64,000 nucleotides of DNA from an uncultured bacterium. GTDB lineage: Bacteria > Armatimonadota > Abditibacteriia > Abditibacteriales > Abditibacteriaceae. A program made the position numbers and the translations under genes. Position 1 is the first letter of the stretch. Every line of letters begins with the position of its first letter. The notes beneath the pieces were generated by a model, which worked only from the letters and a program-made list of their open reading frames with translations, made no database searches and was not told where the DNA came from. Location of the stretch: assembly GCA_963843795.1 (NCBI GenBank), contig CAWJLW010000006.1, forward strand, positions 1,116,001 to 1,180,000. Reading direction: 5' to 3'. Below, piece by piece: positions 1,330 through 63,914 of this stretch.

Positions 1330-1378
1330 AACGCCGTGCAAGCACTTGCAGAACTTCCGCAAGTACTTGCACGGCGTT
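1330..1378. repeat. inverted repeat containing two copies of the iterated palindrome (rpsB-tsf spacer)
   Basis: 24-nt arms AACGCCGTGCAAGCACTTGCAGAA and TTCCGCAAGTACTTGCACGGCGTT, 2 mismatches. Confidence 0.85.
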
Positions 1379-1435
1379 TTGGCGTGTGACAGACGGATTG
1401 AAACAGATAATAAACAACCATAAAGAGGTAGAAAA

Positions 1436-2323
1436 ATGGCGACAGTGAATGCGGGCGATGTGAAGCGCCTGCGCGAAATGACGAATGCGGGCATTATGGA
1501 TTGCAAACGCGCGCTGGTCGAATGCGAAGGCGATTTCGACCGCGCCGTGACTTTTCTGCGCGAAAAAGGGATCGCTGGTGCGGGCAAAAAAGCTGGCCGC
1601 GCAACCGGTGAAGGATTGATCGGTTTACACGTCAGCGAAGATGGTCAAACTGCGGGCATTATTGAATTGAACTGCGAAACCGACTTCGTAGCACGCAACG
1701 AAAACTTTCAACAGTTGGCCACGCAGTTGGCACAACAAGTCGAAGGCGGCGCTAGCGATGTCGATGTCTTGCTCAAGCAACCGTTTATCGGTGACAGCAG
1801 CAAAACCGTCGAGGAACACGTGCGCGAATCCATTGCGACTATCGGCGAGAATATCGTCGTCCAGCGTTTAGAACATTTGAAGGCCGGAAGCGGCGTTCTG
1901 GGCGCTTACGTGCATTCCGATGGAAAGCAGGCTGCGATTGTCGAAATTGCCAGCGATGCGCCGGACGAACGGGCCGAACAATTAGCGCGCGACTTGGCGA
2001 TGCAAGTTGTGGCGATGAAGCCGCAGTATGTCAATCGCGATGAAGTGCCCGCTGATGAAATCGAAGCCGAACGCAAGATTTACACGGAGCAGGCGGCGCA
2101 GGAAGGCAAGCCCGAAGCGATTCAAACCAAAATCGCCGAAGGTCGCTTGAGCAAAGAGTTCTTCCAAACCGTTAGCCTGATGGATCAAATGTTCGTTAAA
2201 GAACAGAAACAGTCCATCGCGCAAGTCGTGAAAGCCATCGGCGGCAACGCGCGCGTAGTGCGCTTTGTGCGCTATCGCGTCGGCGAAAATCTGGTCTTGG
2301 AAGAAACCGAAGTCACAGCATAA
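1436..2323 (+). CDS. tsf: translation elongation factor Ts
   Basis: VKRLREMTNAGIMDCKRAL, ELNCETDFVA and RFVRYRVGE motifs; follows rpsB. Confidence 0.97.
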   Translation: MATVNAGDVKRLREMTNAGIMDCKRALVECEGDFDRAVTFLREKGIAGAGKKAGRATGEGLIGLHVSEDGQTAGIIELNCETDFVARNENFQQLATQLAQQVEGGASDVDVLLKQPFIGDSSKTVEEHVRESIATIGENIVVQRLEHLKAGSGVLGAYVHSDGKQAAIVEIASDAPDERAEQLARDLAMQVVAMKPQYVNRDEVPADEIEAERKIYTEQAAQEGKPEAIQTKIAEGRLSKEFFQTVSLMDQMFVKEQKQSIAQVVKAIGGNARVVRFVRYRVGENLVLEETEVTA

Positions 2324-2357
2324 ATATCAAAGATTTACGCTGAAAAGGCTTGCACAA

Positions 2358-2390
2358 CAAAAAAGGCGCGATAATGTCGCGTCTTTTTTG
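2358..2390 (+). terminator. probable intrinsic terminator after tsf
   Basis: AAAAAAAGGCGCGA-TAATG-TCGCGTCTTTTTT hairpin with T tract. Confidence 0.65.
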
Positions 2391-2639
2391 TTGTGTTACA
2401 CACTTAAAAAATCTCATTGCCTTACAATAACAGTTATCAGAGAGAAAATTTCAGATTTCGAAAATTTCTCTCTGGAATCCGCAACTTTAATCTAAATAGT
2501 TTCTCGTAAGATAGTAATAATGGGAACTATTTTGTGCATTAATAGAGATTTATTCGAGACATCGGCAAATTTTTACTGCCATTTGAAAGTTGTTGTCGCT
2601 TATTTGTAGTTTGATCGTTTTATTTAACAGGAGTTAGGG

Positions 2640-3377
2640 ATGAAGAAGCGCGGTTTTACGTTGATTGAGTTGTTAGTTGTAATTGCTATTATTGCTATCT
2701 TGGCGGCGATTTTGTTTCCGGTATTTGCGCGAGCGCGCGAAAATGCGCGTCGTGCCTCTTGCCAGAGCAACTTAAAGCAGATTGGTTTAGGTGTAATGCA
2801 GTATGCGCAGGATTACGACGAGCGTTATCCGATGCGCCAATATGATAACTCGGATATTGGTACGGCAAACTCGTGGCGTCGCACAACTTATCCGTATACG
2901 AAAAGCTCGCAATTGTTTTCGTGTCCGTCAAATACGTCCAACTCTTTATTGGCCGATGACAGCACCGACAATCGCATGAATGCGATTGGTGATCCAAACG
3001 GCCCGCGTTTCCGCCGTTCGTATGGCGCCAACGCGGTGGCCGTGAATATTGGTGGTAACACGCCGATGGAGTGGGGCCGCGCAAGTTCGATGGCAGCCTT
3101 GAACGATGTATCGCGCACGATTTTGGTCACCGAGACCAAAGAAGGCCACAATTCTGTACTGATGGATGCTCCGCCGTCTCGCTTCGCTAGCTCGACCGAT
3201 ACGTTTCCCGGTCATTTGCAAACCGTGGTCTTCTTGTTCGCTGATGGCCATGTCAAGTCGATGCGCCCCAGCCAGACCGCTACTCCTATCAATATGTGGA
3301 ACATCGAAGAATCCAACGATGGTGAACCTGCCTTGATGGATCGTATGCAAGCGTGGGACACTCTGGTTACGCGCTAA
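2640..3377 (+). CDS. prepilin-type N-terminal cleavage/methylation protein with C-terminal H-X9-DG motif (DUF1559-like)
   Basis: [48 protein letters not shown]-terminus; [23 protein letters not shown]. Confidence 0.9.
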
Positions 3378-3419
3378 ATTCACCACACCAATCCGTTTTA
3401 TAAATGTGCAAGTCGAAAT

Positions 3420-4331: not shown

Positions 4332-4365
4332 AAAAGGACGCTGCAAGTACTTGCAGCGTCCTTTT
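4332..4365. terminator. 34-bp perfect palindrome centred on the iterated motif, between convergent genes
   Basis: AAAAGGACGCTGCAAGT|ACTTGCAGCGTCCTTTT with A/T tails. Confidence 0.8.
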
Positions 4366-9007: not shown

Positions 9008-9041
9008 CGAATTGCCCTGCAAGTACTTGCAGGGCAATTCG
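9008..9041. repeat. 34-bp perfect palindrome centred on the iterated motif (purN-purH spacer)
   Basis: CGAATTGCCCTGCAAGT|ACTTGCAGGGCAATTCG; no T tail. Confidence 0.85.
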
Positions 9042-9099: not shown

Positions 9100-10641
9100 G
9101 TGAAACGCGCTTTAATCAGTGTGTCGGACAAGTCGGGCGTGATCGAATTTGCGCGCGAATTGAAGAACTTAGAATGGGAAATTCTCTCGACGGGCGGAAC
9201 CGCCAAAGCCTTGCGCGAAGCGGGCGTCGAAACAATTGACGTGTCGCAAGTGACCAATTTTCCCGAAATGATGGATGGTCGCGTCAAAACGCTGCATCCC
9301 GCGATTCATGGCGCGCTTTTGGCGCGCCGCGATGTGCCCGAACATTTGATGGCACTGGAAGACCACAATATCGCCCAAATTGATCTGGTGTGCGTGAATT
9401 TGTATCCATTTGAATCGACAATTGCGCGCGCCGACGTGACGCCCGAAGAAGCGATTGAAAACATCGACATTGGCGGCCCTTCGATGATTCGCTCGGCTGC
9501 TAAAAATTTCGCGTCCGTGACCGTTGTTGTTGATGCCAGCGACTACGCGCAAGTACTTGCCGAACTGCAAAACGGCGCGACCAAGCCCGAAACGCGACAA
9601 AAATTGGCTGTCAAAGCCTACGCGCATACCGCGTCTTACGATGCCGCGATTACTAAATATCTCAGTGGCGCTTTATTGCCGCAATCTTTACCTTTGGCGT
9701 TTGAAAAAGCCCAAGATTTGCGATACGGCGAGAATCCGCATCAGCGTGCCGCATTTTATCGCGAGCGCAATGCGCCGCGCGGCACTTTGGCGACTGCGAA
9801 GCAGTTGCACGGAATCGCGCTTTCGTTCGTGAATTTATTCGACTTGGATGGCGCGTGGAATTTGGTCTGCGAATTTGAAGCGCCCGCCGCGTGTATCGTT
9901 AAACACGCCAATCCGTGCGGCTGCGCGGTCGCAGGCACGCTCAGCGAAGCGTTTGCCAAAGCGCGCGACGCCGACCCGATTTCCCGCTTCGGCGGCATTA
10001 TCGGTTTGAACCGCATTGTCGATGTGAAAACAGCCGAAGAAATTATCGTCAAAGGTTCTCTGTATCACGCGATTATCGCGCCTGAATACGAACCTGCCGC
10101 GCTGCAATTACTGAAAGAGCGTTCAGGCTGGGGCGAAGATTTGCGCATTCTGGAAACCGGCATCGCGCTGCGTGGCGAAGGCTCGAACTTAGATTTAAAG
10201 CGCGTTTCGGGCGGACTTTTGGTGCAAGATACCGACGTGCGCGAACTGAGTGCTGACGAACTGAAAGTCGTCACACAACGCCAGCCCAGCGAAAGCGAAA
10301 TCCAAGATTTGATGTTCGCGTGGCAGTGCGTGAAACACGTCAAAAGCAACGCGATTACCGTTGCCAAAGGTGGGTCGCTTTTGGGCGTGGGCGCAGGACA
10401 AATGAACCGTGTCAATAGTGTAGAATTGGCCTTAAAACAAGCGGGCGAAAACGCGCAAGATGGCGTCCTCGCTTCCGACGCATTTTTTCCCTTTGATGAC
10501 GGCCCGGCGGCGGCGGCCAAAGCGGGCATCAAAGCGATTATTCAACCCGGTGGCAGCAACCGCGACGCCGATTCCATCGCGCTATGCGACCGCGAAGGTT
10601 TGGCAATGGTTTTCACCGGCGTGCGCCATTTCAAGCATTGA
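9100..10641 (+). CDS. purH: bifunctional AICAR transformylase/IMP cyclohydrolase
   Basis: RALISVSDK, GRVKTLHP, IDIGGPSMIRSAAKN, LRYGENPHQ, ASDAFFPF, FTGVRHFKH. Confidence 0.97.
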   Translation: MKRALISVSDKSGVIEFARELKNLEWEILSTGGTAKALREAGVETIDVSQVTNFPEMMDGRVKTLHPAIHGALLARRDVPEHLMALEDHNIAQIDLVCVNLYPFESTIARADVTPEEAIENIDIGGPSMIRSAAKNFASVTVVVDASDYAQVLAELQNGATKPETRQKLAVKAYAHTASYDAAITKYLSGALLPQSLPLAFEKAQDLRYGENPHQRAAFYRERNAPRGTLATAKQLHGIALSFVNLFDLDGAWNLVCEFEAPAACIVKHANPCGCAVAGTLSEAFAKARDADPISRFGGIIGLNRIVDVKTAEEIIVKGSLYHAIIAPEYEPAALQLLKERSGWGEDLRILETGIALRGEGSNLDLKRVSGGLLVQDTDVRELSADELKVVTQRQPSESEIQDLMFAWQCVKHVKSNAITVAKGGSLLGVGAGQMNRVNSVELALKQAGENAQDGVLASDAFFPFDDGPAAAAKAGIKAIIQPGGSNRDADSIALCDREGLAMVFTGVRHFKH

Positions 10642-10660: not shown

Positions 10661-10692
10661 AAAGCTCGCTGCAAGTACTTGCAGCGAGCTTT
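10661..10692. terminator. 32-bp perfect palindrome centred on the iterated motif, between convergent genes
   Basis: AAAGCTCGCTGCAAGT|ACTTGCAGCGAGCTTT. Confidence 0.8.
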
Positions 10693-12397: not shown

Positions 12398-12427
12398 AAG
12401 CGTCCTGCAAGTACTTGCAGGACGCTT
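12398..12427 (+). terminator. 30-bp perfect palindrome centred on the iterated motif, with T tail
   Basis: AAGCGTCCTGCAAGT|ACTTGCAGGACGCTT followed by TTGTTGTTTTT. Confidence 0.8.
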
Positions 12428-12647: not shown

Positions 12648-13973
12648 ATGAGCATGACGCGACGGGAATTATTACGAGAATTAATGTGTGCTGGATTAAC
12701 CTTAACCGCCGCGACCAGCATTTTAAGCGGCTGCGGTAGCAGCGCTTCGACTGGCAGCGACGGAACCAAATCCGCGAGTTCGGTTGGTTCTTCGGGCGGT
12801 TCCGATAAGCCGATTCGCATCGGTTTCATTCCCCTGACCGATTGCGCCAGCGTCGCGATGGCTCTGGAACTTGGCCTGTATAAAAAGCATGGGTTGAACA
12901 ATGTGACTGTTGAAAAGCAGGCGAACTGGGCGGTTTTGCGCGACAAACTTTCCGGCGGCGAATTGGAGGCCGCGCACTGTTTGTTCGGAATGCCGTTTTC
13001 TCTGGCTTCTGGTGTCAGCAAAGTTAAAGGCGACCCGCTGAAAATCGCCATGACGCTTTCCAATAACGGACAAACCACGACGCTTGGCACCAAGGCTTTT
13101 GCCGGAGTGGGTTATGCCGATTATCCGGCTTTGAAACGGGCGATTGAAACATTGCGCAAAACCAAAGAGCCGACATTTGCCATGACTTATCCGGGCGGCA
13201 CGCACGATTTGTGGATGCACCTGAGTTTGGCCACAGCGGGCGTCGATCCGGCCAGCGTGAAAATCAAAGTGATTCCGCCGCCGCAAATGGTGGCGAACAT
13301 GATGGCCAACAATATGGACGGCTTCAATGTTGGCGAGCCTTGGGGTGGCAAAGCGGTGGCTGATAATGTCGGTCAATTGTTTGTCGCGACGCAGGATTTA
13401 TGGACGAACCATCCGGAAAAAGTGCTGGCGACCAATACAACCTTCGCCAAAGAGCGCCGCGCCGATTTGAAAAAAGTAATGATGGCGGTTTTGGAAGCCT
13501 CGCAATGGCTGGACGACGAGGCCAAATTCGTCGAGCATCGCAAAGAAACCGCGCAGAAAACCGGCACTGCGGTTTATGTCAACGCCAAGCCAAATGTCAT
13601 TGAGGAGCGCTTGATCGGCACCTATCAAACCAACACTTCGCCAGCCGTCGAAACTTTCAAGGACGATACGATGCTGTTCTATCGCGGCGGAGAAGTCAAT
13701 GCGCCGCGTTTGGGATACGGCGTGTGGTTTCTCACGCAATATATGCGCTTTAATATGCTGAAAAGCGCGCCCGATTATCAGACAATTGCCAAAGATGTGA
13801 TTCTGAGCGAATTGTACAAAGAAGTCGCGGACGAAATGAAAATTCCGATTCCCGACGATGATATGAAACCTTTCATGGTGAAAGCCGATGGTTTCGAATT
13901 CGACCCGAACAAGCCTGAAGAAGCGCTGAAAATCTACGCGGCCAATTTTCAAAAAGCCAGCAAAATGGCGTGA
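12648..13973 (+). CDS. nrtA: nitrate ABC transporter substrate-binding lipoprotein (CmpA/NrtA family)
   Basis: Tat-like TRRELL plus lipobox LSGC; IGFIPLTDCA, FAMTYPGGTHDLW, PPPQMVANM, VGEPW, HPEK. Confidence 0.9.
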   Translation: MSMTRRELLRELMCAGLTLTAATSILSGCGSSASTGSDGTKSASSVGSSGGSDKPIRIGFIPLTDCASVAMALELGLYKKHGLNNVTVEKQANWAVLRDKLSGGELEAAHCLFGMPFSLASGVSKVKGDPLKIAMTLSNNGQTTTLGTKAFAGVGYADYPALKRAIETLRKTKEPTFAMTYPGGTHDLWMHLSLATAGVDPASVKIKVIPPPQMVANMMANNMDGFNVGEPWGGKAVADNVGQLFVATQDLWTNHPEKVLATNTTFAKERRADLKKVMMAVLEASQWLDDEAKFVEHRKETAQKTGTAVYVNAKPNVIEERLIGTYQTNTSPAVETFKDDTMLFYRGGEVNAPRLGYGVWFLTQYMRFNMLKSAPDYQTIAKDVILSELYKEVADEMKIPIPDDDMKPFMVKADGFEFDPNKPEEALKIYAANFQKASKMA

Positions 13974-14082
13974 AACCAATTTTTAACTCCAAATTTTTCA
14001 TCCGACCTTTCGCATTGTCTCTCGCAAGTACTTGCGGGGCACATTGCGGGCAATTGCCTGAGATTCACAAAGAGAGAATGTT

Positions 14083-14988
14083 ATGAACGAAGTGCAAACC
14101 ATGCCGCGCGATGCGGCCATCGTGGACGTTTCCGAACTGCCAGCCGGCAGAGAATTGGGCGCTGGCGAAACCGCAAATATCGAAGCATCTACAGCCGACA
14201 AGATGCGCTCTGGTGCGATTGGAATAGTCAAAGATATGCTGTGGAGCTTGGCCTCGCTGACGATTCTGCTGACGATGTGGACACTGGTTTCCTTCACCAT
14301 CGGCCAAGATCTGCCCACGCCGCTGACCGCTTTTTCCAAGTTGGCCGAACTGCTTCATAACCCGCTGGGCACTGATGAAAACGGCCCGCGCATCGGGCTT
14401 CAATTGTGGGCTTCGATTGGACGCGTTTTGACCGGCTTCGCGCTGGGTTCAATTGTCGCGGTGCCGCTGGGGATTTTGATGGGCGCCAGCCCGATTTGTA
14501 AGCGCTTGTTCGATCCGATTGTACAAATCCTGCGACCGGTTTCGCCCTTAGTCTGGTTTCCGCTTTCGCTTGTCACTTTCAAAGCCCTCGGCGGCGTTTC
14601 GACCGCAACCTTATTCACGATATTTATCACCAGTTTGTGGCCAACGCTTATTAACACCGCGTTTGGCGTCGGCAGTTTGCCCGACGACTACAAGAACGTG
14701 GCGCGCGTCTTTCAATTTTCCAAAGGCCGTTATTTGCGTCGCATTCTACTGCCCTATGCCATCCCGCATATTCTCACCGGTTTGCGCTTGAGCATGGGCA
14801 TCGCGTGGCTGGTCATCGTGGCTGCCGAGATGCTGTCGGGCGATATGGGAATCGGTTTTTTTGCGTGGGAAAGCTACAATGCCGGCTCTTACGATCAGAT
14901 GGTGGCTTCGGTTGTTTTGATCGGAATCGTTGGGCTGATTATAGACCGCGTTTTTGACCGTATGCTGAAGAAATTTGATTACTCGTGA
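14083..14988 (+). CDS. nrtB: nitrate ABC transporter permease
   Basis: DPIVQILRPVSPLVWFPL, WPTLINTAFGV, ILTGLRLSMGIAWLVIVAAEML. Confidence 0.92.
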   Translation: MNEVQTMPRDAAIVDVSELPAGRELGAGETANIEASTADKMRSGAIGIVKDMLWSLASLTILLTMWTLVSFTIGQDLPTPLTAFSKLAELLHNPLGTDENGPRIGLQLWASIGRVLTGFALGSIVAVPLGILMGASPICKRLFDPIVQILRPVSPLVWFPLSLVTFKALGGVSTATLFTIFITSLWPTLINTAFGVGSLPDDYKNVARVFQFSKGRYLRRILLPYAIPHILTGLRLSMGIAWLVIVAAEMLSGDMGIGFFAWESYNAGSYDQMVASVVLIGIVGLIIDRVFDRMLKKFDYS

Positions 14989-15046
14989 ATTTTGGTGCCG
15001 CAAGTACTTGCCACCCACAGCGCGTTGTTTTGAACGACTCACTATT

Positions 15047-16966
15047 ATGAAAATTACCATTGAAATTCGCGGTGTCAGCAAAGTGTTCAATACCGAGCAC
15101 GGTCACCACGTCGTTTTGAAAGACGTTGACCTTGATATTCGGCAGGGCGAATTCGTTTCGTTCATTGGCCATTCGGGTTGCGGAAAATCGACGCTTTTGA
15201 ACTTGATTGGGGGGCTGACCGAAATTTCGAGCGGCAGCTTAGAAGTCAACGGCAAAGCTGTCAACGGGCCAGGTTTGGATCGCGCGATGGTGTTTCAAAA
15301 CTATTCGCTTTTGCCCTGGCTCAGTGTGCGCGAGAATATTCGTGAAGTCATCGATGCCGCGCAACCCACAATGAGCGAAAGCGAAAAAAGCGCTATTGCC
15401 GACCGCTTTTTAGGCGCGGTGAAATTGAGTGCGCACGCCGAGAAAAAGCCCGCGCAGCTTTCGGGCGGTATGAAACAGCGCGTGGCGATTGCGCGCGCTT
15501 TCGCCGTGCATCCCAAAATCTTAATTTTAGATGAACCTTTTGGCGCTTTGGATGCGCTGACCAAGGGTGCGCTGCACGATACGTTGAGCGCGCTGTGGCA
15601 AAGCGATGATTCACAGGTCGAGACGGTGTTGATGGTGACGCACGACATCGACGAAGCGATTTATCTTTCCGACCGCATTGTCGTTATGAGCAACGGCCCA
15701 GCCTCGAAGATTAGCGAAATTTTCGAGGTGAACCTGCCACGTCCGCGCGATAAGCGCGCGATGACCAAAACGCGTGAAGCCGTCGCGCTTAAAGCGCGCC
15801 TGATGGAAAAGCTCAACGCTGGTCATGCCATGAGCCACGGCGGTTCGCGCGACAAAGGAAAAATTCGCTGCGGCTTCGTGCCCTTAATCGATTGCGCGCC
15901 CTTAGTGATGGCGCACGAGCTGGGCTTTTTTCGTAAGGCCGGACTTAACGTTGAACTGCGCAAGCAACCGTCGTGGGCCGCAGTGCGCGACAAAACTTTA
16001 AGCGGCGAATTGCAACTTTCGCAATGTTTGTTCTCGCTGCCGCTTTCGGTCGTGGCTGGCGTCACCGAGCCGCGCTGCGAACTATTGAAAATCGTGATGA
16101 ATTTATCATCGAACGGGCAAGCGATTGTCTTGAGCCGCGCTTTTGAAAGTGTGGAAGCTCACGATGCCAAAGCTTTGAAAAATCGCATCGATGCGATTCT
16201 CAGCCAAGGTCATCGCCCGACTTTCGCCATGACTTATGCTGGTGGCACGCACGACATCTGGCTACGCTTGAGTTTGCTGGCTGCAGGGATTGATTTGAAG
16301 CAAGTTGATTTCGTGGCCTTGCCGCCGCCGCAGATGGTGATGAGTTTGAAAAACGGCACGATTGATGGTTTTTCGGCTGGCGAACCGTGGCCCGCTTTGG
16401 CGCTACAAGATGGCAAGGGCGTTTATTATGCGCGTTCGGGCGACCTGTGGCGCAATCATCCCGAAAAAGTATTGGTCGCCAATTCCGCCTTTGCGCAGAC
16501 GCGCGCCGATGATCTCAAGCTTGTGATTCGCGCGGTTTTGGAAGCTGCGCAGTGGCTCGAGCGCCCCGACAATCGCGCGCAGGCCGTGCAAGTACTTGCG
16601 AGCAGTTTTTATCTGGATAAAGACGCCAATTTGCTGGAAAGCGTGTGGAAGGAAAGCAATTTCAAATTCTGCGATCACGGCGCGCTCAACCTGCCGCAAC
16701 GTGCGCACGCGCAATGGTTTTTGGAGGCGTTTCTGCGTTGCGGACTGTTGGCAAATGCGCCCGATAAAAGCATCGTCGATAGTGTAATTCTGCAAGCACC
16801 CTATCGCGACGTGGCGCGCGGCATGGGGTGGAATGTGCCCGCCGAATCGAGCAATAGCGCCGCTTTGAAAGCGGCACAAAGTTTCGCTGGTGCCTTCGAT
16901 AGCGCATCGTTTGAACAAGCTCTATCGAAAGACAAGACCCTGAACGCAGAGGTGATGAGCGGATGA
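15047..16966 (+). CDS. nrtC: nitrate ABC transporter ATPase with C-terminal NrtA-like domain
   Basis: GHSGCGKST, LSGGMKQR, DEPFGALD, then GFVPLIDCAP...FAMTYAGGTHDIW...GEPW...HPEK; start moved to ATG 15047. Confidence 0.9.
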   Translation: MKITIEIRGVSKVFNTEHGHHVVLKDVDLDIRQGEFVSFIGHSGCGKSTLLNLIGGLTEISSGSLEVNGKAVNGPGLDRAMVFQNYSLLPWLSVRENIREVIDAAQPTMSESEKSAIADRFLGAVKLSAHAEKKPAQLSGGMKQRVAIARAFAVHPKILILDEPFGALDALTKGALHDTLSALWQSDDSQVETVLMVTHDIDEAIYLSDRIVVMSNGPASKISEIFEVNLPRPRDKRAMTKTREAVALKARLMEKLNAGHAMSHGGSRDKGKIRCGFVPLIDCAPLVMAHELGFFRKAGLNVELRKQPSWAAVRDKTLSGELQLSQCLFSLPLSVVAGVTEPRCELLKIVMNLSSNGQAIVLSRAFESVEAHDAKALKNRIDAILSQGHRPTFAMTYAGGTHDIWLRLSLLAAGIDLKQVDFVALPPPQMVMSLKNGTIDGFSAGEPWPALALQDGKGVYYARSGDLWRNHPEKVLVANSAFAQTRADDLKLVIRAVLEAAQWLERPDNRAQAVQVLASSFYLDKDANLLESVWKESNFKFCDHGALNLPQRAHAQWFLEAFLRCGLLANAPDKSIVDSVILQAPYRDVARGMGWNVPAESSNSAALKAAQSFAGAFDSASFEQALSKDKTLNAEVMSG

Positions 16967-17772
16967 TTCCTTTTTTGCAAGTCGAAGAAGTCAGCAAAAG
17001 TTTCCCGACGCCCAAAGGTGAATACGTCGCAGTGCGCGACGTTTCGTTCGATATTCGGCGCGGTGAATTCGTTTCGTTCATCGGTCATTCCGGCTGCGGG
17101 AAATCGACGCTTTTGAACATGGTTGCCGGAATGGAAATGCCCACGCAAGGCCGCATCGCTATCGAAGGCCGCGCTGTTGTCGGGCCGGGCGCCGACCGCG
17201 CGATGGTGTTTCAAAATTACTCACTTTTGCCTTGGCTTTCTGTCCGCCAGAACGTGTATCAGGCGGTTGACGCCGTCATGGAAAAGCACCTGGTGTTCAA
17301 AGAACGCCGCGAACTGGCCGACGATTTTCTCGATATGGTCGGCTTGTGGGATCACCGCGACAAAATGCCGATGCAGCTTTCGGGCGGTATGAAACAACGC
17401 GTGGCGATTGCACGCGCCTTCGCTATCAAACCCGATGTGCTAATCATGGACGAACCGTTCGGCGCTTTGGATGCGCTGACCAAAGGCGCGCTACACGAAG
17501 AACTGCTGCGCATCTGGCGCGATGAAGGCGGTCGCAAGCAAACGATTTTGATGGTGACGCACGACATCGACGAAGCGATTTATCTTTCCGACCGCGTGGT
17601 GGTAATGAGCAATGGCCCCGCCGCCAACATCGCGGAAATTCTCGATGTCAAAATTCCGCGTCCGCGCGATAAACGCGACGTGATTTTGCTCGATGAATAT
17701 GTACGCGTAAAAAATCGTCTTATCGAACTGCTGGAAGACACGTTCGGCCACGAAACCGAATTGGCGGCTTGA
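16963..17772 (+). CDS. nrtD: nitrate ABC transporter ATP-binding protein
   Basis: Walker A/B motifs and signature; 4-bp ATGA overlap with nrtC. Confidence 0.9.
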   Translation: MIPFLQVEEVSKSFPTPKGEYVAVRDVSFDIRRGEFVSFIGHSGCGKSTLLNMVAGMEMPTQGRIAIEGRAVVGPGADRAMVFQNYSLLPWLSVRQNVYQAVDAVMEKHLVFKERRELADDFLDMVGLWDHRDKMPMQLSGGMKQRVAIARAFAIKPDVLIMDEPFGALDALTKGALHEELLRIWRDEGGRKQTILMVTHDIDEAIYLSDRVVVMSNGPAANIAEILDVKIPRPRDKRDVILLDEYVRVKNRLIELLEDTFGHETELAA

Positions 17773-17867
17773 TATCGTCAAATTTTTGCTTGATCGTAGC
17801 TTGCAAGTAGTTGCAAATCTACGCAAGTTGTCACACAGCGCATAACTCACTTTACAAGGAAAATTTC

Positions 17868-19409: not shown

Positions 19410-19418
19410 GTGAAAATT

Positions 19419-19456
19419 CGCTTGAAGCGCTGCAAGTACTTGCAGCGCTTCAAGCG
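19419..19456. repeat. 38-bp perfect palindrome centred on the iterated motif
   Basis: CGCTTGAAGCGCTGCAAGT|ACTTGCAGCGCTTCAAGCG. Confidence 0.85.
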
Positions 19457-19465
19457 TTGAATTTT

Positions 19466-21586: not shown

Positions 21587-21628
21587 AATCGCTAAAATGC
21601 TTGCTGCAAGTACTTGAGGGAGAAGATT

Positions 21629-22414: not shown

Positions 22415-22462
22415 AGGAGCGGTAAAAGCATTTGTGAAGCACGCCCCGAGTGCTTGCGGCTG

Positions 22463-22500
22463 CTTACAGCGCTGAAACCTGAAATTAACACAACGCGCAC
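22463..22500 (+). promoter_or_regulatory. GlnR-box-like 11-bp-periodic repeat upstream of the FAD oxidoreductase
   Basis: CTTAC-n6-GAAAC-n6-TTAAC-n6-CGCAC. Confidence 0.45.
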
Positions 22501-22536
22501 TGACCAAATTTCATTATTCAATCACTTTGAATTTCT

Positions 22537-30476: not shown

Positions 30477-30524
30477 TTAAATTCGCCCTGCAAGTACTTG
30501 CAGGGCATTACTTTGATAGAAATT

Positions 30525-33500
30525 ATGTTTGAACCGTTTGAAGGCATTCCCGATTATCCGAAATTAGAAACCGAAATCCTACAATTCTGGCACGAAGCCA
30601 AAATCTTCGACCGTTTGCGTGCGCAAAACCAGAACGGCCCGCGCTGGCGTTTTCAGGACGGGCCGATTACCGCCAACAATCCGATGGGCGTGCATCACGC
30701 CTGGGGCCGCACCTACAAAGATATTTTTAACCGTTTCCACGCCATGAACGGGCGCAAATTGCGCTGGCAAAATGGCTTCGATGGACAAGGTTTGTGGGTC
30801 GAAGTCGAAGTTGAAAAAGCGCTGGGTTTCAAAGGCAAACCCGATATTCTGGCGTTTGGCTTGGACAACTTTTCGCGCGCCTGTCGTGAGCGCGTCGAAA
30901 CCTTTTCCGCGCGCATCACCGAGCAATCGATTCGGTTGGGCCAATGGATGGATTGGGAGCATTCGTATTACACATTGGATGATTCCAACATCGAAAACAT
31001 CTGGGGCTTTTTGAAAAAGTGCCACGAAGAAGAATGGCTGGCTTCCGATTACCGCGTGATGCCGTGGTGTCCGCGCTGCGAAACTTCGCTTGTCGCAGCA
31101 CGAAAGCGCCGATTCTTACCGCGACATCACGCATCGCAGCGTTTACATTCAACTGCCGATTTTAGGGCGCGACGAATCATTTTTGGTGTGGACGACGACG
31201 CCATGGACTTTGGCCGCCAATGTTGCGGTCGCGCTGCATCCCGATTTGACTTATTGTCGCGTCAAAAGCGACGACGAAATTCTGATTCTCAGCAAAGGCA
31301 CGCTGAAAACGCGCGCTCAAGCCGGGCTATGAAGTTTTAGAAGAAATTTCCGGGCAGCGAACTGATCGGCTTGAATTATTCCGGGCCGTTCGATGATATT
31401 CCGTTGCAGGAAAAGATGAACGCCCAAACGCCGCGCCGCAGTGTGGCGTGGGAAGAAGTCGGCGAAGACGAAGGCACCGGCATCGTTCATATCGCGCCCG
31501 GTTGCGGCGCCGAAGACTACGAATTGGGCAAGCGCGAAGGTTTGGGATTCATCATTCCCGTCGATACCGGCGCGCGTTTCCTGGAAGGCGCGGGGCAAGT
31601 ACTTGCGGGCCATCACGGGTTGGAAGAAGTTGATTTAATCTTTCAGGAGTTGGAAAAACGTGGGCGTTTGTATCGCGTGCAGAAATATAAACATTCCTAT
31701 CCGCACTGCTGGCGTTGTGGCAGCGAACTGATGTTCTACGCCACGACCGGCTGGTTTATTCAGGCCGAATCCGGGCCGAATCCGGCGCGTCCGCGCTTGC
31801 GTCGCGCGGCCTCAGAAGTGAAATGGGTGCCGGAATATGCGGGCAAGCGCATGGACGAATGGCTGGCCAATATGGGCGATTGGAACATTTCGCGTCGTCG
31901 CTTTTGGGGCTTGCCGCTACCGATTTATGTCGATGACGAAGGTAATTTTGAAGTCATCGGTAGTCGGGCCGAACTGCGCGAACGCGCGGTTGATCCGACG
32001 AAAGTTGATGCCTTGCCGGAACTTCATGTGCCGTGGATTGATGAAATCCAAATCAAATCGCACGACGGCAGCAAAATCTTGACGCGCATTCCCGATGTCG
32101 GCGATGCGTGGCTCGACGCTGGCATTGTGCCTTTTGCCACGCTGGGTTTCAATGGCGCGACCGATTTGCGAATGCCCGCTGAAGTACTTGGGGAGAATCC
32201 CGATGAATACTGGCAGAACTGGTATCCCGCAGATTTCATCACCGAAATGCGCGAGCAGGTGCGCCTGTGGTTTTATTCGATGCTGTTTATGGGCGTGGCA
32301 TTGACCGACCGCGCGCCTTATGAAACCGCGATGGTTTACGAAACCATGCTCGATGAAAACGGCGAGCGCATTTCCAAAACCAAGAAAAATGGCGTGCCTT
32401 ACGACGAAGCGATTGAAACTGTGGGCGCCGATCCGATGCGTTGGACATTTTGCTCGAATCCGTTGAACAAAGATATTCGTTTCGGCTACGCGCCGATTCA
32501 CGAATCGCGGCGCCGCTTGCTGACGCTGTGGAACGTGTATTCGTTTTTCGTGACTTATGCGAACCTGGACAAGCCCGAATTGGGCGCGCAAGTACTTGCA
32601 CCGTCGAATATTCTCGACAAATGGATTCTGGCGCGTTTGCAACAGTTGATTGAAAGTTCTACCAACGCGATTGAAGGTTACGCGCCCTCACAGTTGAGTT
32701 CGGGTGTGGAAAGTTTCGTGGAAGATTTGTCGACCTGGTATGTGCGCCGCAGCCGTCGCCGCTTCTGGAAATCGGAATCTGATGATGACAAAAACAGCGC
32801 GTATCAAACGCTGCATCATGTGCTTTTAACCCTGTCGAAAATCATTGCGCCGGTGATTCCCTTTACCGGCGAAGCGATGTATCGCAACTTGAAAGCGCCG
32901 CTGCAAGACGCGCCGGAAAGCGTGCATTTGTGCGCGTGGCCGAGCGTTGATGAAGCGCTACGCGATGATGAATTGGTGCGCGAAGTCGAGGGCGTTTTGG
33001 CGTGCGTAAGTTTGGGCCATGCCGCGCGCAAAGAATCGAAAATCAAGGTGCGCCAACCGTTGTCCAAAGTGCTGGTGCAAGCGCCGAATACCGTAGCGCG
33101 CACTGGAATTGAGAACTGGCGCGACACGATTCTCGATGAATTGAACGTGAAAGATTTGGAACTGCTGGACGATGCCGGTGATTTGGTGCGTTACAGTTTG
33201 AAAGCCAATCTGCCGAAACTGGGCAAAAAACTGGGCAAGCGCATGGGCGCGGTGCGACAGGTTTTGGAAAACGCTTCAGAACCCGAAGCGCGTCGCATCG
33301 GTGAAGCGGTCGGGCGCGGCGAAAGCGTGACGATTGAGGTCGATGGCGAAAATTTGGAGTTGGCCGCACGATGAAATTTTGGTGGCGACCGAGCAGCAAA
33401 GCGGTTACAGTTTCGCGCAGGATGGCGGCTGGGCGGTGGCGATTGACACGACTTTGACGGATGAATTGGTCTTGGAAGGTTTGGCGCGCGACTTCATTCG

Positions 33501-33732
33501 TGCCGTTCAAAACGCACGCAAAGCCGCCGGTTTTGAAGTCAGCGACCACATCGCGATTTTGCTGCGCGACAGCGAATCGGACGTCGTAGCGGAACTGTTT
33601 GAAGAATGGGGCGAAACCATTCAAAACGAAACGCTGGCCGATGAATTACGTTTGGTGGATGCTGATTATCCCGATATGAACGACGTGACGCTGGGCGAAG
33701 AAACTGTCGGCTTGCGCGTGGAAAAACTCTAA
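30525..33732 (+). CDS. ileS: isoleucyl-tRNA synthetase (type 2-like) with four apparent +1 frameshifts
   Basis: DGPITAN..GVHH, WTTTPWTLAAN, GTGIVHIAPG, YPHCWRC, DWNISRRRFWG, WYVRRSRRRFW, EGLARDFIRAVQNARK spread over shifted frames (breaks near 31090, 31308, 31353, 33365); followed by lspA. Confidence 0.92.
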
Positions 33733-36122: not shown

Positions 36123-37082
36123 ATGTTGATTTCTATTGATGAACACAATCAGGGCGCGCGCGCCGATGCATTTTTGGCTGCGCACTTGAATTTATCGCGC
36201 GCTGCGGCCAAGCAGCGCTTGAACGAAGCGACTCTTAATGGCGCGTCCTGCAAAGCTTCTCATACCTTGCGCGCCGGTGACGTATTGCAAGTGCCAGACG
36301 CAGAAACTGAAATTCTAACGATTGCGCCGCCCAACGAAACAGCGTTGCCGCCGATTTTATATGAAGATGAATATCTGCTGGTGATCAACAAACCGCGCGA
36401 TTTGATCGTGCACGAAGGTGCGGGCGCGCCACAGCTCACGTTGGTCGAACTGTTGCAAGCGCATGGACGCACGCTGTCGAGTGTCGGGCCGAGTGGGCGT
36501 GCGGGCATCGTACATCGTTTGGATAAAGGCACGACCGGTGCGATGGTGGTTTGCAAAGACAACGCGACTCACGAACAATTGGCGCTCGATTTCGCGCAGC
36601 GCACAGTGCGTAAAACTTATCGCGCCTTAGTTTGTGGCGTGCCCAAATTAACGCCGGGCGGTCGCGGTCGCATCGAAGCGCCAATTGCGCGCCATCGCGT
36701 GCAGCGCAAGAAAATGGCGGTTTCTCCCGAAGGTCGGCCTGCCGTCACCGAATATGAAATCGTGCGCGCGTGGTCGAAAATGGCTTTGTTAGACATTGAT
36801 CTGTTGACCGGTCGTACCCATCAAATCCGCGTGCATCTGGGTTATTTGGGCCATCCGGTTGCGGGCGATGCGAAATATGGCGGCCTGAAACGCGCTTTGG
36901 AAATCGCGCCCGATGAAGCTGTTAAAAACGCTCTGCAAGTACTTGCAGGTCAAGCCTTGCACGCTGCGCGCTTGGAATTTACCCATCCAATTACGCAAGA
37001 AACCATCAGTTGCGAAGCGCCGCTTCCACCCGATTTTCAATCCGTTGCGGATGCTTTGAACGAGGTGAGCGAGGACAAGTAA
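36123..37082 (+). CDS. RluA/RluD family pseudouridine synthase
   Basis: ILYEDEYLLVINKP, GIVHRLDKGTTG, TGRTHQIRVH, QALHA. Confidence 0.93.
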   Translation: MLISIDEHNQGARADAFLAAHLNLSRAAAKQRLNEATLNGASCKASHTLRAGDVLQVPDAETEILTIAPPNETALPPILYEDEYLLVINKPRDLIVHEGAGAPQLTLVELLQAHGRTLSSVGPSGRAGIVHRLDKGTTGAMVVCKDNATHEQLALDFAQRTVRKTYRALVCGVPKLTPGGRGRIEAPIARHRVQRKKMAVSPEGRPAVTEYEIVRAWSKMALLDIDLLTGRTHQIRVHLGYLGHPVAGDAKYGGLKRALEIAPDEAVKNALQVLAGQALHAARLEFTHPITQETISCEAPLPPDFQSVADALNEVSEDK

Positions 37083-40052: not shown

Positions 40053-40085
40053 GATGCAAGTACTTGCACTGCAAGTACTTGCATC
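40053..40085. terminator. tandem double copy of the iterated palindrome followed by a T tract
   Basis: GATGCAAGTACTTGCA-C-TGCAAGTACTTGCATC then TTTTTTT. Confidence 0.8.
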
Positions 40086-43626: not shown

Positions 43627-43660
43627 AAAAGCCTCCTGCAAGTACTTGCAGGAGGCTTTT
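43627..43660. terminator. 34-bp perfect palindrome centred on the iterated motif, between convergent genes
   Basis: AAAAGCCTCCTGCAAGT|ACTTGCAGGAGGCTTTT. Confidence 0.82.
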
Positions 43661-51436: not shown

Positions 51437-51514
51437 AAGATTGAGAATGGAAACATGAAAACGCCCGCTGCAAGTATTTGCAGCGGGCGTTTTCATGTTT
51501 CCATTCTCAATCTT
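51437..51514. repeat. 78-bp inverted repeat (perfect 37-bp arms) centred on a motif variant, overlapping the glyA stop codon
   Basis: AAGATTGAGAATGGAAACATGAAAACGCCCGCTGCAA-GTAT-TTGCAGCGGGCGTTTTCATGTTTCCATTCTCAATCTT. Confidence 0.9.
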
Positions 51515-52758
51515 GATACAATGGATACTTTTCGCATAAGGCTTTCACGCGCGCAATCGACTGTTCTCTGGTTTTCGCATCATCGCGATTTTTGATCGTC
51601 TGCACGATAATATCGGCAATTTCGCGCATATCGTCTTCTTGCATACCGCGTGTCGTCAAAGCCGGTGTGCCCAGACGAATGCCCGAAGTGACAAATGGCG
51701 AGCGCGGATCGAAAGGAATCTGGTTTTTGTTGCAGGTGATATGAACTTCGCCCAGCAAATGTTCGCAATCTTTGCCGGTGATTTCCATGGGCGTCATATC
51801 GACCAGCATCAAATGATTGTCTGTGCCGCCCGCTACCACGCGCAAACCGCCCGCGACCAAGGCGTCGGCCAAGGCGCTGGCATTCTTGCGCGTTTGTGCT
51901 TGATAAGCTTTAAATTCCGGCGTCATCGCTTCTTTGAAACAAACCGCTTTGGCCGCGATGACGTGCATCAGCGGGCCGCCCTGAATGCCGGGCATAATGG
52001 CTTTATCGATTTTCTCGGCCCATTCGGCTTTGCACAAAATCAGGCCAGCGCGCGGGCCGCGCAGGGTTTTGTGCGTGGTTGTGGTCACGAAATGCGCGTG
52101 CGGCACCGGACTCGGATATTCGCCCGCTGCTACTAAGCCCGCAACATGCGCCATATCAACTAACAGCAGCGCATCAACTTCATCGGCGATGGCGCGGAAT
52201 TTTGCCCAATCCATCACCCGTGAGTACGCCGAAAAACCGGCGACAATCATTTTCGGACTGATGTTCGAGTGCCAGAGCGCGCACTTCTTCGTAATCGACC
52301 AGTTCGGTGTCTTTGTCCAAACCATAGGCAACGGCATTATAAATTTTGCCGCTGAAGCTCATTTTGTGGCCGTGCGTGAGATGCCCGCCCGCCGCCAGAT
52401 TCATGCCCAGAATCGTGTCTCCCGCTTGCAGCGCAGCCAGATAAACGCCCGCGTTGGCCTGACTGCCCGAATGTGGCTGCACGTTGGCGTGTTCAGCGCC
52501 GAACAATTGTTTGGCGCGCTCAATGGCCAAATTTTCGGCGACATCGACAACTTCACAGCCTCCGTAATAACGTTTGCCCGGATAGCCTTCGGCATATTTA
52601 TTCGTCAAAACGCTTCCGGTCGCTTCGAGCACGGCGCGGCTGGTGAAATTTTCGGAGGCGATCATTTCCAGACCAAAACGCTGGCGATGCAATTCGTTTT
52701 CGAGCGTTTGCGCGATTTCGGGATCAGTGGCTTTCAAATGGCTTAAATCAAAACTCAT
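51507..52758 (-). CDS. glyA: serine hydroxymethyltransferase with one apparent +1 frameshift near 52257
   Basis: [31 protein letters not shown] in one frame; [32 protein letters not shown] in the other. Confidence 0.94.
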
Positions 52759-58663: not shown

Positions 58664-58695
58664 AAAGTCTCCTGCAAGTACTTGCAGGAGACTTT
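58664..58695 (+). terminator. 32-bp perfect palindrome centred on the iterated motif, with T tail
   Basis: AAAGTCTCCTGCAAGT|ACTTGCAGGAGACTTT then TTT. Confidence 0.82.
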
Positions 58696-61208: not shown

Positions 61209-61221
61209 GCTCGTTTAAACC

Positions 61222-61259
61222 CAAATTGGGCGCTGCAAGTACTTGCAGTGCCCAATTTG
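61222..61259. repeat. 38-bp palindrome (1 mismatch) centred on the iterated motif
   Basis: CAAATTGGGCGCTGCAAGT|ACTTGCAGTGCCCAATTTG. Confidence 0.82.
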
Positions 61260-61362
61260 AGTTAGTATTGAAAGCGTCGTTGGTTAATGAAAGCTACAAA
61301 GCTACTGAAATTTGCAAAATGATTGTCCAACCCAATCCGCTTTCCGGCGACGGTGAAGAAAA

Positions 61363-63885
61363 ATGAAACACATCGCAAAACTTCCTTCCAGTTCCTTGAT
61401 CTCTTCTCTTTCCCGCCGTCCGCTGCGCTGGATCACCTTGTCTCCCGCCGATTTATCACCTGTTGCGCTGGCTGCGCTCGCATCGCCCACAACAGCACGA
61501 CGTGGTGTGGCTCTCACTACTATTGGGGCGCTGTGTCTGCCCACTCTAATGTCGAGCCTGCCAGTCGCCGCGCAAACTAAAAATCCGCCGCCCGCCACTG
61601 CGACCGCCGCTCCCGATACTGTTACTCCACCTGCGCCGGTCAATGCGCCCATCGTCAATCCCGCAGCGGCTAATGGCGTGAATGTGCTCATCGTGTCTTT
61701 CGATGATCTGACGCTTCCCGTTCCTCCGGCGGTTGCCAGTGCAAGCTTATCGCCGATAACTCCGTCGCTGGATAAGACACCCGCTTTGCCGCCCGCCCTG
61801 GTGCCGTCAGTGGGCGTTACTACCCCCACGCTACCTGCTCCGTCACCTTTAACCGCCCCTGCTCCTTTAACCGCGCCTGAGACCAAGCCGGCGACGCAAG
61901 AACCGCCGCAGCGACCAGCGATCACACCAGCAGCATCGCTTTTGTTAGATGCGTGGCCACATTGGAATGTGCTGGCGAAAAAAGCGCCACCACCACCCGA
62001 CTCTCGGTTCGACATGAAGCCCGAACCCATGCAGACTTATTCGCCCGACAGAAATGGCGTTTCAACGACACCCTCTGCTACAACTGCTTCTGGTAGCGCA
62101 ACTTCGCCTGCCGCGCCTGGAACTTCGTCTGGTGCTGCAAGCAACAGTGGCAATTTCGGCCCCGGTGATTTTGGTTCGAGGAATGTAGTGTCATCGTCGC
62201 CGTTTGCGTTAGGTTCAGGGAATGTGGGAGGCAGCGCCGGAGGTTCACCTTTTGTGGTCGGTGCAGCTCAGATGGCCTCGGCGCCCTTACGTCGTGCTTT
62301 GGTGGCCAGCGGATTTCCCGATGTCTTGAACGCTGCGCCCAATAGCAACACCTTGCAGCGCGTTTTTAATAGCAATCGACTTTCACCGGGCGTCGTCGAA
62401 GCGTTGCGCGTCGAGATGGCGCGTTTGGCTTTGGCGACCACAGCTCCCATCGAAAATCCAACCGTACTGGAAAAAAGTGCGGATGTGAAAAGCGCGCCAG
62501 AAAATGAAGCCGCGCCGGAAATTGTTCAGAACATGATGCCTTTGACTTACAGCGCGGCTTACCGTGCAGGAGCGCGCATCGGTCAGGCGGTGGGTTATCG
62601 CGCGGTGATTGCGATGGGAATGCTACCACAGTCAAGTCGGGAAGGCGAAGCGGAGAATGCGGCGACTTTTGTGATGATGGTAATTGATGCCGGTCGCGAA
62701 ACCGGCGACCAGATGGTGTTTCGCGAAAGTGGCACCAGCGCGCTGGCTCTCAACGAAAGTGCGGCCCTGGTGGCCAGCGCCTACATCACGCGCGAGACCG
62801 CCAAATGGCCGGTGTTAACCGAGCGCGACAAAAATGCGCGCGCTGATGCTTATCTTTTGCAAGCGCGCGCTTCAATGCAAGCGGGCAACTTCGACGAGGC
62901 GCGCAACACGATCAATCAAGTGTTGGCGTTCGATCCCAATCGCACAGAAGCGCGCTTATTGTTGGCCGATATGCTGCGCTCAACCGACCCTACAGCTTCG
63001 GCGCGCGTCTACAACAATGTGCTGGAAGCTGGCGGTGGCGATGGGCCGACGTGGGCCAAAGCTGCTATCTCGTTCACTCTGGGAGATACCCCTGATTGGC
63101 CGGCAGCGCTCAGCGCTGCCCGAAAAGCTCTGGCCTTGAAATACGATTCTTCAGCTCTGCGGCAAGCAATGGCAACTGCAGAGCTGGGTCGCGCGATGCT
63201 GTTTCGTAATGCCGACCGAGTCGAATCGGCGGAAAATGCCGAAGCTGAAGCCGAAAAACATCTCAATCGTGCACTGGAAATGGCGCCCGATGATCCCGCC
63301 ATCACGCGACTGATGATGCGTCAGTTGGTGCAAAGCGGTCGATACGCGCAGGCGCTGGTGGCGATGGATCGCATTGTGGTGATGTATCCCGATGATGTCG
63401 ATCTGCAAAGCCAATATGCCATCGCGTTACTGAAATCCAACGGACGCGATGAAGATGCTTTCGGGGCGTGGGCGCGCGCTTTCGCCTTGAGCGGAGAAGC
63501 GCCAATGACGCCGGATACGTTCACTTACCGCCACTTGGCCGAAGGTTTCGATCAGCGCGAGTCAAACCTTGGAAAGCGCGCCGGACAACTGTCGGCCAGC
63601 GTCGCTGCGGGCAATACTTCACGAGAAGCCGCGTTGGTACAAATGAATCGCTACGATCAGGACGCTGAGCAGGCCGGGGTTGCCATTAAAGCCCTGACGC
63701 CGACGCTCGACGGTCGTGGTGGCGTGTTGCACGCTTCGCGTGTGGCTGCTGCCGACCTAATGGCACAAGCCATCGCCAATCATCAAACTTATCTGGAAAC
63801 CGGACAGGGATTGTACCGCGACCGCGCCAACGAATTGCACCGTCAAGCCATTGTCGTTATTAATATGGCGCGCACCGGACGCTGA
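61363..63885 (+). CDS. large exported Pro/Ala-rich TPR protein
   Basis: 840-aa ORF; hydrophobic segment ending VAA|Q; Pro-rich N-terminus; TPR-like repeats in the C-terminal half. Confidence 0.75.
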   Translation: MKHIAKLPSSSLISSLSRRPLRWITLSPADLSPVALAALASPTTARRGVALTTIGALCLPTLMSSLPVAAQTKNPPPATATAAPDTVTPPAPVNAPIVNPAAANGVNVLIVSFDDLTLPVPPAVASASLSPITPSLDKTPALPPALVPSVGVTTPTLPAPSPLTAPAPLTAPETKPATQEPPQRPAITPAASLLLDAWPHWNVLAKKAPPPPDSRFDMKPEPMQTYSPDRNGVSTTPSATTASGSATSPAAPGTSSGAASNSGNFGPGDFGSRNVVSSSPFALGSGNVGGSAGGSPFVVGAAQMASAPLRRALVASGFPDVLNAAPNSNTLQRVFNSNRLSPGVVEALRVEMARLALATTAPIENPTVLEKSADVKSAPENEAAPEIVQNMMPLTYSAAYRAGARIGQAVGYRAVIAMGMLPQSSREGEAENAATFVMMVIDAGRETGDQMVFRESGTSALALNESAALVASAYITRETAKWPVLTERDKNARADAYLLQARASMQAGNFDEARNTINQVLAFDPNRTEARLLLADMLRSTDPTASARVYNNVLEAGGGDGPTWAKAAISFTLGDTPDWPAALSAARKALALKYDSSALRQAMATAELGRAMLFRNADRVESAENAEAEAEKHLNRALEMAPDDPAITRLMMRQLVQSGRYAQALVAMDRIVVMYPDDVDLQSQYAIALLKSNGRDEDAFGAWARAFALSGEAPMTPDTFTYRHLAEGFDQRESNLGKRAGQLSASVAAGNTSREAALVQMNRYDQDAEQAGVAIKALTPTLDGRGGVLHASRVAAADLMAQAIANHQTYLETGQGLYRDRANELHRQAIVVINMARTGR

Positions 63886-63914
63886 AACGCTCTGCAAGTA
63901 CTTGCAGAGCGTTT
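63885..63914. repeat. 30-bp perfect palindrome centred on the iterated motif
   Basis: AAACGCTCTGCAAGT|ACTTGCAGAGCGTTT. Confidence 0.85.

Follow-up and report, generated by a model that had tools for sequence, protein, structure and literature searches.

A hyper-abundant palindrome in an Abditibacteriaceae genome as a candidate DNA uptake tag with several dialects

The DNA analysed here, called the window, is a stretch of 64,000 nucleotides from an uncultured bacterium of the family Abditibacteriaceae (phylum Armatimonadota), covering positions 1,116,001-1,180,000 of contig C6 in the genome that we refer to as G000. The family is also the likely one by the organism names of one gene's homologs (Abditibacterium utsteinense, 77%). 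The gene content of the window is that of ordinary housekeeping. Scattered within and between these genes lies a short palindrome, GCAAGTACTTGC, which a first-pass annotation had reported in 40 exact copies with about ten near-matches. A recount likewise gave 40 exact copies, and each of 100 dinucleotide shuffles of the window contained none; nine further sites bring the number with at most one mismatch to 49 (0.07 expected). The 14-mer extension is complete in 23 of the 40 copies and the CT...AG 16-mer in 15. According to our own gene model, 28 copies are intergenic and 12 coding. The copies had also been described as dispersed and as sharing no flank beyond CT/AG. The dispersal is borne out, whereas the statement on flanks does not hold for eight window copies (499 of 2,567 in the genome), which are centred in long perfect hairpins. 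A scan of the window against Rfam returned 0 matches.

The enrichment of GCAAGTACTTGC is real and genome-wide. The 4.30-Mb genome contains 2,567 copies, compared with an order-3 or order-5 Markov expectation for the motif-masked genome of 0.12 or 7.4, respectively, and copies are present on all 11 contigs, so that the enrichment is not limited to the contig of the window. The k-mer lists of G000 from k = 8 to k = 16 are all headed by GCAAGTACTTGC, the next unrelated 12-mer being poly-A (288 copies). The word is sharply defined, since only 506 one-mismatch variants occur, which gives a ratio of perfect to one-off copies of approximately 5:1. On C6, which covers both turning points of the skew and three parS sites, the density amounts to 49-72 copies per 100 kb in 18 of 18 full 200-kb bins and is flat over the replication origin (ori) and terminus (ter); near the skew maximum it is 58-63 copies per 100 kb. 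The window copy at 36935 is covered by one short-read contig, which shows 0 differences, although the read run may share the campaign of the assembly.

Gene calls were made with our own dicodon model of open reading frames (3,391 genes, 86% coding). On this basis, 1,796 copies (approximately 70%) are intergenic, 758 are coding and 13 lie at gene edges, and 1,543 of the 2,692 spacers of at least 40 bp (57%) hold GCAAGTACTTGC. The coding copies are evenly distributed along genes and favour one reading frame (497/146/115), in which the motif reads Q-V-L-A. This peptide occurs 568 times in G000, compared with 18-81 times for look-alike peptides, and 505 of the 568 occurrences are encoded by the rare codons of the motif, where 0.4% would be expected.

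Arms extended by at least 8 bp are found in 499 of the 2,567 copies, mostly 10-35 bp past stop codons. The motif forms the centre of 525 of the 578 long perfect palindromes of G000 and of 584 of its 919 intergenic stems of at least 11 bp. Long arms accompany 181 of 287 copies between convergent genes, compared with 20 of 262 between divergent genes, and the arms between convergent genes carry TTTT in 82% of cases. For five hairpins of the window, folding predicts a GUAC loop and energies of -24 to -29 kcal/mol (Table 1), and the hairpin copies would be expected to terminate transcription. The arms differ at each site, with 264 distinct 8-mers among the arms of the 499 hairpin copies, which indicates that terminators were co-opted and that no repeated element is present. 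Hence, the motif does not represent the core of a family of repetitive extragenic palindromes (REP) or miniature inverted-repeat transposable elements (MITE) with conserved flanks, an outcome that the first-pass annotation had considered.

Table 1. Copies of GCAAGTACTTGC in the window with their positions and contexts.
Feature	Position	Strand	Remark
40 dispersed exact GCAAGTACTTGC copies	1359..63905		members of the 2,567-copy family
Copy forming the tip of a 34-bp perfect palindrome whose ends are A/T, with convergent genes on either side; predicted intrinsic terminator for both directions	4332..4365		GUAC loop, -26.3 kcal/mol, z -7.6
Hairpin-tip copy, arms +11 bp, between purN and purH	9008..9041
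Coding copy in purH, dominant frame (Q-V-L-A)	9549..9560	+
Hairpin-tip copy 29 bp past the purH stop, convergent genes; predicted terminator	10661..10692		-24.6 kcal/mol
Hairpin-tip copy followed by a T-run, downstream of an ECF-sigma-like gene; predicted terminator	12398..12427		-26.1 kcal/mol
Hairpin-tip copy, arms +13 bp, within the nitrate-assimilation cluster	19419..19456
Two coding copies (31595, 32588) in ileS; G006 has its own dialect at the place orthologous to 32588	31595..32599	+
Coding copy in an RluA-family gene; gapless alignment to the motif-free G001 ortholog (substitution origin)	36935..36946	+
Two copies 15 bp apart, directly past ftsZ	40056..40082
Hairpin-tip copy where dcd and a thioredoxin-like gene converge; predicted terminator	43627..43660		-29.4 kcal/mol
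Hairpin-tip copy with a T-run; predicted terminator	58664..58695		-23.8 kcal/mol
Hairpin-tip copy 8 bp past the stop codon of a TPR-protein gene	63885..63914

The comparison set comprised 27 genomes of the family and 401 of the phylum. Counting in related genomes, as the first-pass annotation had proposed, gave GCAAGTACTTGC itself at chance level (0-3 copies in each of 40 relatives) and a dialect of their own, at similar density, in nine relatives, so that 10 of the 27 family genomes carry a motif. The dialect is CAAAGTACTTTG in G001 and CGAGTACTCG in G012, while TCGAGTACTCGA occurs 2,770, 2,510 and 2,261 times in G009, G015 and G019, respectively, and 0 times in G000. The degenerate word RAGTACTY is present in 2,695-4,371 copies in these six genomes, compared with 0-117 in the other 21 of the family, and only the same six exceed 2,800 copies of AGTACT among the 401 phylum genomes. 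The next count, 1,221 (control 211), belongs to G353 from another family of the phylum, where 11 kb inspected gave no explanation.

Two further dialects depart from this pattern. Only G006 carries AGTACGGTCGA, which is non-palindromic and present in 2,412 copies (1,188 and 1,224 by strand). In 172 kb of this genome, 72 of the 126 copies form 36 inverted pairs, head-to-head, separated by 2 bases and flanked by A/T, no pair has the opposite orientation, and single copies stay intact. The GTAC-free CAGCCACG counts 2,676-3,503 copies in G007, G016 and G018, which form one clade, compared with 131-529 in the 24 others, with a strand split of 1,561/1,530; in G016, it has a longer consensus and forms seven inverted terminator-like pairs among 48 copies. 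We infer the homology of CAGCCACG to the GTAC-core dialects from its behaviour alone. Overall, five dialects possess a GTAC core, which is thus found in 7 of the 10 motif genomes, and one does not; they vary over 4-8 flanking bases, and four of the six are palindromic. Palindromy is dispensable for the tag system. Hairpins or inverted pairs at terminators were observed in G000, G006, G001 and G016 and are weak in G009, G012, G007 and G018 (for hairpins, 2 of 173 copies in G009 and 0 of 150 in G012).

In the remaining 17 family genomes, no motif was found by de novo screening of 6-95 kb each and by whole-genome counts of the known dialects only. A tree of FtsZ and ComEC, whose deep nodes are weak (0.2-0.5), places the ten motif genomes in three groups, and G017, among those in which none was found, is the sister of G012. 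The dialect words form an apparently undescribed sequence-tag family. No description of GCAAGTACTTGC was found in the accessible full texts of the literature, although supplementary oligomer-survey tables could list such words. Likewise, no text joining Abditibacterium with a palindrome was found, the letters of TCGAGTACTCGA appear only in papers on human KLF14 (judged by title), and among the matches listed none combined an Armatimonad with an uptake sequence or reported a new uptake-sequence family. An 18-mer scan over 27 of 64 parts of the species genomes gave seven single matches, which is chance level.

The copies are distributed more evenly than expected. In all six relatives tested, the coefficient of variation of the spacing was 0.49-0.72, compared with approximately 0.9 for random placement. 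Between copies deep in genes and intergenic copies, the ratio was 0.74-0.87 below 1 kb, while distances of 2-3 kb were 2.1-fold enriched (z 6.3); 25 control words were flat. Furthermore, genes compensate for their flanks. In genes of 600-1,200 nt, the internal density per kb is 0.37 if neither flank bears a copy, 0.23 if one does and 0.066 if both do, and over 1,887 genes flank and internal copies are correlated with r = -0.146, a value as low as which was reached in 0 of 2,000 length-matched permutations. When both flanks measured at least 40 bp, the gradient was weaker but kept (0.20, 0.19 and 0.09), and control peptides were flat. The copies are placed as if coverage every 1-2 kb were what counts. 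A simple autocorrelation gave -0.146 at 1 kb (short-range repulsion) and a largest long-range value of 0.055, with no clear period. Pairs on C6 less than 120 bp apart have distances that appear to cluster near 20, 30, 40, 51 and 61 bp, which would suggest helical phasing.

Acquired DNA is poor in copies. The density rises threefold, from 0.31 per kb around the genes of most atypical codon usage to 0.98 around the most typical ones, and insertion sequences and type I restriction-modification, extracellular contractile injection system, heavy-metal and ParA/B genes lie in the emptiest regions, among them the two largest copy-free gaps (each of approximately 26 kb) and the sparse contigs. On contig C3, a cluster resembling such an injection system (sheath, tube, baseplate, Pvc16, DUF6519) is almost without the motif. 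A heavy-metal efflux island on contig C2 contains foreign dialects, namely two copies of AGTACGGTCGA and two of CAAAGTACTTTG, which suggests transfer from relatives.

The origin of the coding copies was followed in 94 ortholog windows, in which G000 sites were reused across several relatives. The length was unchanged in 60 of them, longer in G000 in 29 and shorter in 5, and local protein identity at coding copies was 40% compared with a background of 62%. The mostly unchanged lengths indicate that most copies arose by substitution in permissive regions and a minority in connection with small insertions. A second organism, recovered from metagenome contigs (64% GC, median protein identity 63%), shares the core CAAGTACTTG; 53% of four-fold sites differ between it and G000. 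In 143 gene pairs of the two, 5 of 26 coding copies of G000 are identical in place, compared with 2.1% of control 12-mers, and 9 more lie within two mismatches; at gene junctions, the motif occurs in the second organism at 20 of 24 motif-bearing versus 17 of 34 motif-free ones. Among metagenome loci of at least 5 kb, which were chosen by the 16-mer and partly overlap, 35 of 65 contain at least three copies.

The 12-mer is also held repeatedly by four phage contigs of 39-46% GC (terminase, portal, polymerase and several HNH genes). The phage loci include IMG/VR 3300009514_000019, and a 68-kb phage contig has approximately 20 copies in the form (G)TGCAAGTACTTGCA(C). The copies often lie directly upstream of a ribosome-binding site, and nine of the phage loci, when compared, had no match to G000 proteins. 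These copies could represent an operator or mimicry of the host tag.

Combined, these observations lead us to propose, with a probability of roughly 55%, that GCAAGTACTTGC is this lineage's dialect of a tag resembling the DNA uptake sequences (DUS), kept up by an uptake bias together with recombination. The tag would be recognised by a sequence-specific reader, presumably part of the type IV pilus or competence machinery, which would prefer kilobase fragments that carry it. Recombination would then fix tag-creating mutations until each 1-2 kb holds a copy, as a molecular drive, and copies would settle at the least costly places, namely spacers, the tips of terminator hairpins and variable loops of proteins. 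Molecular drive by uptake is expected to leave copies fairly evenly distributed (PMC7811141). The first-pass annotation had proposed a lineage-specific DNA signal, which is borne out genome-wide; of its four candidate mechanisms, the non-palindromic and GTAC-free dialects and a methylase that does not track the motif favour uptake over methylation of the kind discussed for the highly iterated palindrome HIP1. The family does possess competence genes: ComEC was found in 27, ComEA in 26 and PilD in 26 of the 27 genomes, and G000 additionally contains DprA and PilC, together with neighbouring ATPases that we take to be PilB and PilT. This machinery permits uptake and is no proof of it.

Several points weigh against this proposal. 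Competence genes are as frequent in motif-less genomes and hence do not discriminate. The window had been said to contain no cognate protein, and no reader protein was found here either. The ComP_DUS profile PF16732 had no match in the searched genomes, control genomes being silent too. In a charge screen, none of 55 prepilin-like proteins was clearly basic. The minor-pilin operon, compared in G012, G017, G009 and G006 only and with the CAGCCACG clade left out, has the same parts in G012 and in its motif-less sister G017. Known DUS, like known uptake signal sequences (USS), are not palindromic (PMC1939737), while four of the six dialects here are. Furthermore, coding copies show no mutual repulsion (ratio 1.1-1.4 below 1 kb), and the excess of longer over shorter G000 windows (29 versus 5 of 94) means that some copies may come with insertions. 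Finally, an intracellular signal for coverage would also account for the even spacing and the depletion in islands. ComEA showed no pattern that tracks the motif state. G000 contains about 53 prepilin-type genes, one of them in the window (2640-3377), and the N-terminus is nearly identical in most; two long prepilins of atypical form (C6:1676245 and C6:2160211) have a C-terminal domain in common.

The intracellular alternative, which we regard as unlikely but as a serious competitor, assumes that a DNA-binding protein particular to the lineage reads the tag in the cell and requires one site per 1-2 kb for nucleoid organisation, recombination loading or the marking of strands for repair, and that GTAC may be methylated, as in HIP1. 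The dyad symmetry of a 10-12-mer suits a protein that binds as a dimer; any need for coverage would fit the even spacing, the compensation and the conservation; the apparent clustering of close pairs near 30, 40, 51 and 61 bp points the same way, as do the presence of MutS and an orphan methylase conserved in 9 of the 10 motif genomes. It has also been reported that methylated HIP1 increases transformation (10.1101/2024.09.10.611283). On the other hand, if the factor were essential to the chromosome, a change of site between sister species or its disappearance would be surprising, and no motif was found in 17 of the 27 genomes, including G017. The density is flat over ori and ter, the autocorrelation shows no clear long-range period (at most 0.055), and no SlmA-like protein was found in G000 (no match to PF22276, E. 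coli control positive). Chi sites have polarity, unlike the dialects, which are strand-symmetric.

The methylase just mentioned is the single beta-class N6/N4 enzyme (DPPY) of G000, an orphan amid housekeeping genes; no C5 or Dam-type (D12) methylase was found in this genome, which is 92% complete. Comparison with PDB and phage sequences gave only distant relatives, from which no specificity was inferred. It would be central to a neutral ratchet by methylation and repair, as in Elhai's model for HIP1, by which near-matches around a methylated GTAC would be converted into one word. We consider this improbable, even though 7 of 10 motif genomes have a GTAC core and perfect copies outnumber one-off copies 5:1. 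GTAC is avoided in eight family genomes without a GTAC-core motif (G005, G007, G008, G011, G013, G014, G016 and G018; observed/expected ratio, O/E, 0.00-0.07) and near normal (0.77-0.95) in G010, G021 and G023, which have no orphan methylase. This provides a weak hint that GTAC may be the target of the methylase, although the latter three form one clade and CTAG follows nearly the same pattern, being likewise almost absent from the eight genomes (GTAC/CTAG O/E up to 0.08), in which CTAC is enriched. A hot-spring methylome does not give GTAC for Armatimonadota in its accessible part (10.64898/2026.06.24.734251). The co-occurrence with a methyltransferase that the first-pass annotation had suggested fails, since the gene is found in 13 of the 17 motif-less genomes as well (2 of them broken) and was not found in motif-bearing G016. 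In addition, CAGCCACG has no GTAC, the dialects differ over 4-8 flanking bases, and a mutational process offers no cause for flank-gene compensation.

Even less probable is that the copies are remnants or cores of mobile hairpins of the REP/MITE type, spread by a REP-associated tyrosine transposase (RAYT) or a like enzyme. That 70% of copies are intergenic and often in hairpins, that the GTAC-plus-hairpin form of G006 is REP-like and that length was gained at 29 of 94 coding windows would agree with it. However, the copies share no flank, are spaced evenly instead of clustering and include 758 in frame within genes, most of which align without a length change. The suggested link to RAYT was not found: each of the two RAYT-like genes of G000 (one at C6:631500-632300) is flanked by REP-like hairpins of its own, which have a GTAG foot and no relation to the motif, and G006 has 2,412 copies and no match to a Y1 transposase. 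No small GIY-YIG protein was found (two matches, of 450 and 672 amino acids). The least probable explanation, a transcription element first of all (terminator tip or site of a global regulator), has in its favour the 584 of 919 intergenic stems, the copy in 57% of spacers of at least 40 bp and the unrelated phages with a similar 16-mer directly upstream of ribosome-binding sites, but long arms occur in just 499 of 2,567 copies, hairpins are rare in other dialects (0/150 in G012, 2/173 in G009), the distance to start codons is not fixed and coding copies are even along genes. The ratchet, mobile hairpins and a transcription element each fail a direct test.

Besides the motif, the window contains a nitrate/nitrite assimilation cluster (12648-23994) with an ABC transporter and NasC-like and NirB-like genes. 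The ileS gene (30498-33732) is read in three frames and glyA (51507-52758) in two, and pilC and others are split elsewhere; these are probably assembly indels.

A single family that has at least six dialects alongside sisters without a motif offers a natural experiment, in which a whole-genome comparison of sisters could name the reader. By setting its palindromic dialects against the others, one could ask whether uptake sequences and palindromes of the HIP type belong to the same phenomenon. Flank-gene compensation would be a measurable signature of saturating drive, and the dialect words can act as barcodes of species, both in binning and in the detection of foreign DNA. More tentatively, and somewhat short of an even chance in our estimate, Abditibacteriaceae could harbour a third, independently evolved system of sequence-specific DNA uptake outside Proteobacteria, with a reader of no recognised kind. 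Such a reader would have been respecified repeatedly (palindromic, non-palindromic and core-free), each change altering sites by the thousand, terminators by the hundred and a portion of the proteome, and the normally avoided, possibly methylated GTAC would provide a combined sequence-plus-epigenetic self tag.

For comparison with known systems, the accessible parts of the literature (including PMC5861425 and PMC13756078) describe sequence-specific uptake in Neisseriaceae and Pasteurellaceae only, and the function of HIP1 is still debated there. HIP1 and its alternates share with the present motif a hyper-abundant palindrome in coding and non-coding DNA, conservation at orthologous sites, a palindromic core of four bases and an orphan methylase that is conserved in the lineage. 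In contrast, HIP1 has 8 bp, is the same across most of its phylum and tracks its methylases (PMC4390886), whereas the words here have 8-12 bp, are lineage-specific and in part non-palindromic, do not track the methylase and are used strongly at terminators. HIP1 itself (GCGATCGC) or a described alternate was rejected, as the motif is different and GATC is under-represented (O/E 0.47). The E. coli SlmA-binding sequence GTGAGTACTCAC is likewise a 12-bp palindrome with an AGTACT centre, but it gives 52 chromatin immunoprecipitation peaks and is absent from Ter (PMC3020112), compared with 2,567 copies here that are flat over ori and ter. Nucleoid occlusion by SlmA was rejected, given the missing PF22276 match in G000 and the lack of exclusion from Ter (58-63 copies per 100 kb). 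REP/RAYT systems also combine intergenic hairpins with hundreds to thousands of copies; here the arms are not conserved, 30% of copies are coding and in frame, and no RAYT is linked. This candidate was dropped, as a conserved 20-40-bp hairpin with a GTAG/GGAG foot is lacking and the true REP-like hairpins of G000 are other sequences.

The closest parallels are the DUS of Neisseriaceae, read by ComP, and the USS of Pasteurellaceae, which likewise occur in thousands of 10-12-bp copies, approximately one per 1-2 kb. Their lineage dialects are also built on a short core, they form inverted pairs at terminators, their coding copies show frame bias and peptide enrichment and sit in permissive places, and they are evenly spaced and scarce in acquired DNA (PMC3630211, PMC2817400, PMC7811141). 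The inverted DUS pairs of Neisseria resemble the pairs of the non-palindromic dialects in G006 and G016. The present system differs in its unrelated sequence, phylum, patchy gain and loss within the family and GTAC-free dialect, and in that most dialects are perfect palindromes, so that a single copy forms a hairpin tip. DUS/USS words (PMC1939737) are not the top words of G000, which are all derived from GCAAGTACTTGC. Although it belongs to neither group by sequence or known receptor, the putative tag behaves like DUS and USS on every sequence-level test.

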